A stretch of DNA of 64,000 nucleotides from positions 25,866 through 89,865 of the forward strand of contig JACRJQ010000008.1 of assembly GCA_016215405.1 (NCBI GenBank). The letters are read 5' to 3'. Shown here one piece after another: positions 19,352 to 20,855 of this stretch (position 1 is the stretch's first letter; every line of letters begins with the position of its first letter). The stretch is from Candidatus Tayloriibacteriota bacterium (GTDB taxonomy: Bacteria; Patescibacteriota; Minisyncoccia; Phycocordibacterales; UBA6065). Made by a program: the position numbers and the translations under genes. A model generated the notes under the pieces. The model saw only the letters and a list, made by a program, of their open reading frames with translations. It was not told the origin of the DNA and made no database searches.

Positions 19352-20855
19352 CACTTGAAATAATCCACGAGCAGCTTCCGCTACCCGTGCCTTGTTACGA
19401 CTTACTCCCTGTCATTGAGCTTGCCTTAGGCCGCGACAAGCGCGGACTTCGGGCACTCCCAACTCCCTTGAGTTGACGGGCGGTGAGTACAAGACTCGAG
19501 AACGTATTCACCTCGGTATAGCTGACCCGAGATTACTAGCAAATCCAGCTTCAAGGAGTCGAGTTTCAGACTCCTATCGGAACTAGGGCGCGCTTTCTAA
19601 CGATTGGCTCAGGCTCTCGCCGTCGCATCGCGTTGTACGCGCCATTGTATCACGTGTGTAGCCCAGGGTATCAGAGGGCCATGCTGATCTGGCGTCATCC
19701 TCACCTTCCTCCCAGCTCTTTATTCACAATCCTTATATGAAGGATTCTGCGCAAAGAGCTGGGCAGTCTCGGCTGACACTTGTAACAGCCAACGAGGGTT
19801 GCGTTCGTTACCCCACTGAAGGGAACAATTCAAACCACGAACTGACGACGACCATGCAGCACCTGTCTAATTGCCTTGCGGCGCTAAACGTTTCTGCTTA
19901 GCTTCAACTAGATTTCTAACCCTGGTAAGGTTCTTCGTTTACCATCGAATTAAACCACATGATCCTCTGCTTGTGCGAGTCCCCGTCTATTCCTTTGAGT
20001 TTTAGCCTTGCGGCCGTACTACCCAGGCGGTCGATTTAACGCGTTAGCTACGCCACGGGGAGGGTCGATACTCCCCATAGCTAATCGACATCGTTTAGGG
20101 CGTGGACTACTGGGGTATCTAATCCCATTCGCTACCCACGCTTTCGTGTTTCAGTGTCACGAGTGCCCCAGTCTGCTGCCTTCGCATTTGGTGTTCCCCA
20201 TAATATCAACGCATTTCACCGCTACACTATGAGTTCCGCAGACCTCTTGCATCGTCAAGTCCTGCCGTTTCCCGCGCATGCCCCCGGTTGAGCCGAAGAA
20301 TTTAACGCGAGACTAACAGAACCACCTACACACCCTTTACGCCCAATGATTCCGGATAACGCTTGAGGCACTCGTATTACCGCTGCTGCTGGCACGAGTT
20401 TAGCAACCTCTTATTCGTGAGGTAACGTCAATAGACTTCCTCCCTCACAAAAGCAGTTTACATACCGAAGCACTTCATCCTGCACGCGGCGTCGCTCCAT
20501 CAGACTTTCGTCCATTGTGGAAGATTCTCGACTGCAGCCACCCGTAGGTGTATGGGCCGTGTCTCAGTCCCATCGGTGGGGGTCACCCTCTCAGGTCCCC
20601 TAGGCGTCATTGCCTTGGTAAGCCATTACCTTACCAACTAGCTGATACCGAGCAGGCCGATCCAAAAGCGATAAATCTTTACCCCGGAGGGACCATCTTG
20701 TATTACCTCGGCTTTCGCCGAGCTATTCAAGACTTTTGGGTTCGTACCTACTTATTACTACCTCGTCTGCCGGTTGCCCTTGCGGGCCCCCTTGACTTGC
20801 ATGCCTTATCCACGCCGCCAGCGTTCATCCTGAGCTAGGATCAAACTCTTGATTT
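19352..20855 (-). rRNA. rrs: 16S ribosomal RNA (~1.5 kb, no large insertions).
   Basis: 5' end agagtttgatcctagctcag (rc at ~20830-20849). cttgtactcaccgcccgtca and aagtcgtaacaaggcacgg near the 3' end. Helix 45 is intact. The 3' tail reads ggattatttcaagtg where ggatcacctcctta is expected. Confidence 0.9.

Follow-up and report, generated by a model that had tools for sequence, protein, structure and literature searches.

The question raised by the 16S rRNA locus described here is how start codons are chosen by a ribosome whose small-subunit RNA does not carry CCUCC, the anti-Shine-Dalgarno (anti-SD) sequence, in its 3' tail. The locus lies in a 64,000-nucleotide stretch of contig JACRJQ010000008.1 (the window). 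The FtsK protein encoded there is 100% identical to a protein labelled 'MAG: Candidatus Taylorbacteria bacterium' (MAG, metagenome-assembled genome), and the next homologues, at about 80% identity, are named Parcubacteria or Paceibacterota, indicating that the organism belongs to the Candidate Phyla Radiation (CPR)/Patescibacteria, class Paceibacteria; an exact-match search with the pyruvate kinase gave no record. The answer that we favour, with a probability of roughly 0.8, is that the ribosome of the Taylorbacteria lineage has lost the anti-SD and that its start codons are selected without pairing between Shine-Dalgarno (SD) and anti-SD sequences.

The core trait, a 16S rRNA without anti-SD in this clade, is already known and not new, since the loss in a subgroup of Parcubacteria was published in 2022. 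Tsurumaki, Saito, Tomita and Kanai (RNA 28:1041; PMC9297842) detected the CCTCCT motif of the 16S 3' terminus in no more than 48% of Parcubacteria; the lineages without it overlap the group lacking uL1, and SD helices are presumably not formed in them. Their subgroup is the same clade, and the motif missing from it is the one missing from the 16S rRNA of the window. The article has no analysis of mRNA start regions, promoter-to-start spacing or replacement tails, and the word 'leaderless' is absent from it. What is added here is a likely replacement mechanism, read from the sequence and combining leaderless initiation, unstructured G-poor start regions and coupling, together with the diversity of the tails and a tentative tail hairpin.

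The 3' end of the 16S rRNA

The 16S gene, the elements at its 3' end and its promoter are as follows, the last two having been read from the sequence.

19353..20856, minus strand: complete 16S rRNA gene, the only copy in the window (Rfam RF00177, model 1-1533, 1358 bits)
19366..19389, minus strand: helix 45, intact, 10-bp stem and GGAA loop (CACGGGUAGC-GGAA-GCUGCUCGUG; Infernal alignment)
19353..19365, minus strand: 3' tail GAUUAUUUCAAGU, aligned to the consensus GAUcACCUCCUUu, with UUUCA for CCUCC and GAUUA for GAUCA
19171..19197, minus strand: GC-rich hairpin and U-run, likely terminator of the 16S transcript
21261..21288, minus strand: 16S promoter TTGACT-16-TATACT

At the 3' end of the Infernal alignment the tail GGAUUAUUUCAAGU (19366-19353) matches the consensus GGAUcACCUCCUUu column for column. 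The anti-SD columns (E. coli 1535-1539) are occupied by UUUCA (19360-19356) in place of CCUCC, and the conserved GAUCA of the consensus is GAUUA here, so that this 16S rRNA has GGAUUAUUUCAAGU where the canonical end is GGAUCACCUCCUUA. The initial annotation, made from the letters alone, had described an intact helix 45 followed by a tail without CCUCC and had proposed a structural alignment of the 3' end as a check. This alignment has now been made and bears out both points, with the 10-bp stem and GGAA loop at 19389-19366 and UUUCA in the anti-SD columns. The tail sequences quoted in the annotation are right as RNA sense but needed the correction that the gene is on the minus strand. The annotation had also considered a true 3' end further downstream that would contain CCUCC. 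Read in the RNA sense, the tail is followed by the trailer GAAAACACGCUCUUCGUCCUUUUUGGAUGAAAGCUAACGGAGUCGAUCGG... and then by the GC hairpin and U-run, and no CCUCC occurs in the 250 nt 3' of helix 45 (to about 19100), i.e. before the terminator, which answers this question in the negative. The boxes of the 16S promoter indicate that promoters of the σ70 type are in use in this genome.

The tail is not confined to the window. GTDB was scanned with one genome per species, using helix 45 with a free stem followed by GGATTATTTCA as the query, and this combination was found in 71 species genomes, all Patescibacteria, in which the tail GGAUUAUUUCA is identical. The genomes with this tail are named Taylor-, Nomura-, Zambryski- and Campbellbacteria or Paceibacterota, and some are MAGs under the label 'uncultured Candidatus Saccharibacteria'. 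The loss of the anti-SD is thus lineage-wide and fixed across a large clade, with an identical tail in at least 71 species. In the trailers of these 71 relatives the spacer hairpin varies, and the common tail is followed by an A-N(1-3)-UGA(A/U) continuation and by a GAGUCGAU box about 50 nt downstream; the conservation of these elements indicates that the junction between 16S rRNA and trailer is native and not an assembly artefact.

A mis-assembly, a pseudogene or a mature end lying downstream with CCUCC is therefore a most improbable explanation of the unusual tail. In its favour, the data are mostly from MAGs, in which chimeric rRNA regions do occur, and the 3' end was placed by alignment. 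Against such an artefact stand the full-length, high-scoring 16S match with both helix 44 and helix 45 intact, the recurrence of the identical tail in 71 independent genomes of different species and in additional contigs from metagenomes, the conserved trailer elements, the 250 nt without CCUCC before the terminator, and the independent report of a missing anti-SD (PMC9297842).

When metagenome contigs were scanned with the helix 45 of the clade held fixed and the tail left free, at least 120 contigs were recovered, and among the matches listed only 4 of about 116 readable tails were canonical. The recurrent tails among the matches listed were:

GGATTATTTCA: 21 contigs
GGATTAATTCA: 21 contigs
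GGATCATTTTT: 18 contigs
GGATCATTTAT: 8 contigs
GGATCAATTCC: 5 contigs
GGATCAATTAA: 5 contigs
GGATCACCTCC (canonical): 4 contigs

Many of the remaining tails among these matches are singletons. The varied AU-rich tails show which sequences the end of the 16S rRNA drifts to when it is freed from the constraint of mRNA pairing and, probably, of binding by Era.

Sequences upstream of the start codons

Genes in the window were called with our own codon-usage caller (55 genes, 54 of them used for the SD counts). SD-like 4-mers are found at -18 to -4 in 8 of the 54 genes, compared with 13 and 10 in two control windows, and the duplex energy of the region from -20 to -1 with the canonical anti-SD ACCUCCUUA has a mean of -2.14 kcal/mol, compared with -3.0 to -3.9 in the controls; the SD signal before the window genes is, if anything, weaker than background. 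For the relatives with the same tail the frequency of SD-like 4-mers is 8% against 10% in controls (286 self-called genes in 69 loci), and in five syntenic relatives it is 4 of 97 publicly called genes against 10 and 12. No SD enrichment was seen in the 340 self-called genes of same-tail genomes, the window included. Relatives that keep CCUCC were represented by four short loci with three callable genes, too few for a contrast in SD use. The positive control, 65 annotated E. coli genes, gave SD-like 4-mers in 46 of 65 genes versus 3-4 in the controls and a duplex energy of -6.5 versus -2.1/-2.5 kcal/mol, showing that the measures are able to detect SD use. Bacteria that use SD sequences are reported to deplete AGGAGG-type motifs inside their genes. 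In the window AGGAGG occurs 93 times, compared with 50 +/- 7 expected, and nearly all copies are intragenic, so the motif is not avoided there.

The initial annotation had reported that no GGAGG-like element is present within 15 nt upstream of pyk, recA, efp, rplJ, rplL, mraY, secD and ftsK, which was confirmed, and it had concluded that initiation is SD-independent, a conclusion now upheld by the structural alignment, by the lack of SD enrichment in the window and its relatives, and by the E. coli control. What it missed are the promoter boxes at the start codons and the G-poor, unstructured start regions described below. It had further recorded a single copy of the SD-like 9-mer GGAAGGAGG; there are three in the window, at 13209-13217, 35691-35699 and 52307-52315 (1.1 expected), but only the first precedes a candidate start, as follows.

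13195..13217, minus strand: GGAAGGAGG, 11 nt, ATG 13197 (open reading frame (ORF) 12844-13197), the sole strong SD-like element before a candidate start

With three copies against 1.1 expected, the position of this one before ATG 13197 is probably due to chance, and it may otherwise mark a recently acquired gene. The element (region 13195-13230) sits directly 3' of a TATAAT box, and would hence open its transcript.

A different signal is present at the starts, a -10 promoter box, defined as TAnnnT agreeing with TATAAT in five or more of the six positions. Such a box ends 6-9 nt before the start codon in 12 of the 54 window genes, compared with about 0.5 genes at each other upstream offset. In the relatives the boxes peak at spacers of 6 and 8 nt, both in the 286 self-called and in the 97 publicly called genes, and no such boxes are found at spacers of 5-10 in the 65 E. 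coli genes. An unbiased count of hexamers at -18 to -5 in the 340 genes of same-tail genomes places TATAAT first (26 versus 6.2 expected), with other TAnnnT variants ranking next. The logo of the boxes has T at position 1 in 74%, and T and G at -3/-2 in about 50% each, giving TGnTATAAT, which is the textbook extended -10 promoter. The sequence TGNTATAAT is found 9 times in the window versus 0.65 expected, a 14-fold excess in DNA of 58% GC, and 8 of the 9 copies are upstream of genes in the right orientation; canonical TTGACA-16/17-TATAAT promoters are present as well. Examples of boxes at start codons are:

58929..58949, plus strand: ftsK, extended -10 TGATATAAT, 9 nt, ATG 58947, putative leaderless or near-leaderless start
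54973..54991, minus strand: gene 53980-54975, TGATATAAT, 7 nt, ATG
36353..36370, minus strand: gene 35600-36355, TGCTATAAT, 6 nt, ATG
33003..33020, plus strand: glycosyltransferase 33018-34142, TATAAT, 9 nt, ATG

In the ftsK orthologues TGnTATAAT is located 6-11 nt before the ATG in six of six genomes, with spacers that differ in sequence and length, and three of the four relatives that have the gene 53980-54975 show a TATAAT-like box 6 nt before its ATG. The start regions are also distinguished by composition and folding. The G content at -10 to -1 is 14-16% compared with about 25%, these 10 nt and the first 20 coding nucleotides are A-rich, and the minimum free energy (MFE) of the segment from -20 to +20 is -3.8 kcal/mol, compared with -6.4 to -8.2 in flanking windows.

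The annotation had spoken of a rewritten anti-SD, and its wording deserves attention because the tail complement CUUGAAAUAAUCC resembles GATATAATC, seen before several genes, as well as the consensus of extended -10 promoters. The new tail 5'-AUUAUUUCAAG-3' would then pair with GATATAATC boxes as a new SD; GATATAATC is one base off GAAATAATC and lies at an SD-like distance, and ATAATC is counted 7 times at -18 to -5 versus 1.7 expected. The exact complement AATAAT is not enriched (2 versus 2.7), however, and neither are GAAATA and TGAAAT. The box begins with T in 74% of cases where pairing needs A, the two bases that follow the box are A-rich and not CC, and the TGnTATAAT form is that of an extended -10 promoter; canonical TTGACA/TATAAT promoters, that of the 16S gene included, exist here as well. 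The real tail forms duplexes no stronger than those in the control windows, for the window genes as well as for the public calls of the relatives, and it performs no better than 60 shuffled tails, either upstream or in the first 25 coding nucleotides. Relatives that share this helix 45 have tails of widely differing sequence. A new SD-like pairing with the tail is ruled out by the duplex energies, hexamer counts, box logo, shuffled tails and tail diversity, so a rewritten anti-SD is very improbable and this part of the annotation has been dropped. The diversity of tails behind one and the same helix 45, together with the lack of enrichment of tail complements near starts, points to decay instead of replacement: the anti-SD has decayed into varied AU-rich tails and has not been swapped for one new motif.

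The -10 hexamer is normally located 6-8 nt before the start of transcription. A box that ends 6-9 nt before the start codon, as in roughly a quarter of the genes, therefore implies that the mRNAs of these genes should be leaderless or carry leaders of 1-4 nt. Under initiation without SD pairing, the start codon of such mRNAs would be recognized at the 5' end. Many operon-internal genes start -19 to +9 nt from the preceding stop codon, which suits coupled re-initiation, and such genes might be started through this tight stop/start coupling. Other leadered mRNAs would rely on the unstructured, A-rich and G-poor start region.

Several points speak against this account. The leaderless reading is drawn from promoter-to-ATG spacing, and the box is found at leaderless spacing in only about 20-35% of the genes. 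Several perfect TGnTATAAT promoters would give leaders of 28-70 nt without a well-placed SD, indicating that leaderless initiation is not the sole route. The gene starts in the window are our own calls, each set at the first start codon of its ORF, and not all are right; those of recA and 55119-57209, for example, are wrong. As to the rRNA, the 16S copy count covers the 64-kb window only, the 3' end has been placed by alignment, and the link to loss of Era that is discussed below has been drawn from papers.

Some of these points would fit translation that is SD-independent but essentially leadered, as in Bacteroidia or cyanobacteria; the 30S subunit would then load on A-rich, unstructured leaders, and the boxes would merely reflect AT-rich sequence upstream. 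The start regions are indeed G-poor, A-rich and weakly folded, most genes are without a box at leaderless spacing, the 28-70 nt leaders come from strong promoters, and AT-rich relatives with GGAUCAUUU tails show an A-rich rather than a box-like upstream signal. We consider it unlikely nevertheless, since the boxes form a sharp peak at spacers 6-9 and no broad AT-rich plateau, TG is enriched at -3/-2, TGnTATAAT has been kept before ftsK in six genomes despite diverged flanks, and TGNTATAAT exceeds expectation 14-fold in a window of 58% GC.

Gene callers that score ribosome binding sites will mis-set start codons in this clade, where the informative start signal is a -10 box 6-9 nt upstream combined with a G-poor, unstructured start region. 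In the window, starts called by the longest-ORF rule were wrong for at least two genes, which illustrates the problem. For recA (61561-61624) ATG 61624 is likelier, giving the N-terminus MAKKEKKE, which is the start called in the closest relative (L193), and the peptidoglycan-binding protein 55119-57209 exceeds its orthologues in relatives by 25-73 residues.

Known systems, Era and a candidate tail hairpin

Among bacteria with a -10 box at a fixed short distance before many start codons are the Actinobacteria and Deinococcus-Thermus (GeneMarkS-2 'group C'), which keep a canonical anti-SD and use SD sequences on leadered and operon-internal genes. These leaderless-rich groups thus share the layout with promoters at the starts, and only the lineage of the window is without any anti-SD. 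Mammalian mitochondrial mRNAs are leaderless or nearly so. The mammalian mitochondrial small-subunit rRNA has no anti-SD either (PMC10582724). That system belongs to an organelle, serves a handful of mRNAs with dedicated factors, and keeps the Era homologue ERAL1, which binds helix 45, whereas the present lineage consists of free-standing bacteria with hundreds of genes, most CPR being reported to have lost Era. Sporadic loss or mutation of the anti-SD in bacteria is rare and scattered in the studies of Lim et al. 2012 and Amin et al. 2018, as cited in PMC9297842; unlike those variants, the loss here is fixed across a large clade with many derived tails. Bacteroidia resemble the window in having genes without SD motifs, SD-independent initiation and A-rich start regions, but they keep CCUCC, sequestered by bS21/bS18/bS6, whereas the 16S rRNA of the window is without the sequence itself.

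The tail may have been free to go in this clade because the other factors that use it had likewise disappeared or become less demanding. One such user would be the Era GTPase, which reads GAUCACCUCC and is absent from most CPR according to the literature: Era recognizes GAUCACCUCC adjoining helix 45 and has been lost in most CPR (PMC10582724), and in a 2025 study Paceibacteria are without rplA and der and mostly without era (PMC12641178). Flavobacterium makes no use of the SD, yet its anti-SD is required to translate rpsU and to mature the 16S rRNA, the latter possibly via Era or YbeY (PMC13000453). Taken with the loss of Era in CPR, this suggests by analogy why the sequence decayed here and not in Bacteroidia, where it is retained. 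The clade is thus a natural case, a lineage of free-living type with hundreds of genes and no anti-SD, bearing on how essential SD pairing is and on why the SD-blind Bacteroidia still keep the anti-SD. In practice, these organisms will be missed by 16S primers and probes extending into positions 1525-1542, at the extreme 3' end.

Two elements around the junction of tail and trailer may be connected with the maturation of the rRNA:

19349..19360, minus strand: candidate mini-hairpin UUUC-AAGU-GAAA (tentative), pairing the former anti-SD positions with the bases that open the trailer
19306..19313, minus strand: box GAGUCGAU in the trailer, about 50 nt 3' of the tail and present in nearly all 71 relatives

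Other tails could form similar hairpins, for example UUCA-AAU-UGAA, UUCC-AAAU-GGAA and CUCA-AAU-GAG, and CUCC...GGAG is found in relatives that keep the anti-SD. Of 138 unique tails, 76% could form a contiguous hairpin of 4 bp or more, compared with 45 +/- 4% of shuffles. The base preceding the downstream GA is U in 89 of the 95 unique tails with A at tail position 11, and G in 7 of the 8 with C there, an association with a value of about 1e-8 in Fisher's test, phylogeny being ignored. It is tentatively suggested from these patterns that the mini-hairpin is kept by compensatory changes. MAFFT gave an ungapped alignment of the tails in which the loops are not aligned, and RNAalifold recovered helix 45 only, and no mini-hairpin, from 79 unique tail-plus-trailer sequences. 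In the single-sequence MFE structure of the window trailer the tail is paired with the GAGUCGAUC box and not in the mini-hairpin. The GAGUCGAU box is probably an element of a processing stem, to judge from its conservation, and may pair with the tail, as in the MFE fold, or with the 5' leader UUUCGACCCC near 20990.

A coordinated change is conceivable, in which a shift, for the most part, to mRNAs with no leader or a very short one via extended -10 boxes at the starts was accompanied by a hairpin constraint on the tail and by drift freed by the loss of Era; we put this forward tentatively, at somewhat less than even odds. If it is true, the tail hairpin (UUCA/UGAA, UUCC/GGAA, CUCC/GGAG) would reveal an older second role of the sequence, in the maturation of pre-rRNA. 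None of the three elements was found in the literature searched, where no report describes the leaderless layout or the tail hairpin and none links Parcubacteria or CPR with leaderless initiation, the sole co-mention concerning YchF.

Other features of the window

Pfam annotation of the window gives pyk, mraY-like and murC-like genes, secDF, ftsW, rplJ-rplL, ftsK, recA, efp, a prepilin and a type IV coupling protein. The 16S gene (19353-20856) is unlinked to the other rRNA genes, with 16 kb separating it from 23S-5S (36428-40120); all are on the minus strand. A tRNA-Ile(GAT) gene (18157-18230) is found 1.1 kb downstream of the 16S gene, and the stretch between the two contains the terminator, canonical promoters at 19154-19127 and 18830-18803, and a pair of small ORFs (19106-18900 and 18727-18392) without a Pfam match.

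Introns in rRNA genes are common in CPR. The 23S gene (36628-40120) is 3493 nt long compared with a model of 2925 positions, and contains two inserts resembling group I introns, at 36929-37120 and 37863-38073, one scoring 44 bits (E 4e-9, just under the Rfam threshold) and the other 24 bits (E 0.004). The ORFs inside the 23S gene have no Pfam match, and no homing-endonuclease ORF was detected among them.

The rplJ-rplL genes (45392-46346) are not preceded by rplK-rplA within the 64-kb window, consistent with the reported loss of uL1 in Paceibacteria, and a 263-residue ORF upstream of rplJ (46954-47745) has no Pfam match. Upstream of efp the sequence AGGCTAGGATAAAGCCCTGTTAAGCC (62917-62942), with a GGCU...AGCC hairpin, is conserved in six genomes (L193, L195-L198 and the window) amid diverged intergenic flanks. 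The adjacent genes 41259-42302 and 42386-42799 have similar leaders (42303-42345 and 42800-42840) ending in GGTTAACCGAACCCAT-ATG and GGTTTAACCAAACGCAG-ATG, and this common leader may be a regulatory or initiation element.

At the edge of the window (3-1586) a type IV secretion coupling protein similar to TrwB/TraG is encoded, typical of the equipment of CPR, and CDS 17083-17895 encodes a prepilin with a lectin/laminin-G domain, which is likewise typical of the surface or DNA-uptake equipment of CPR.

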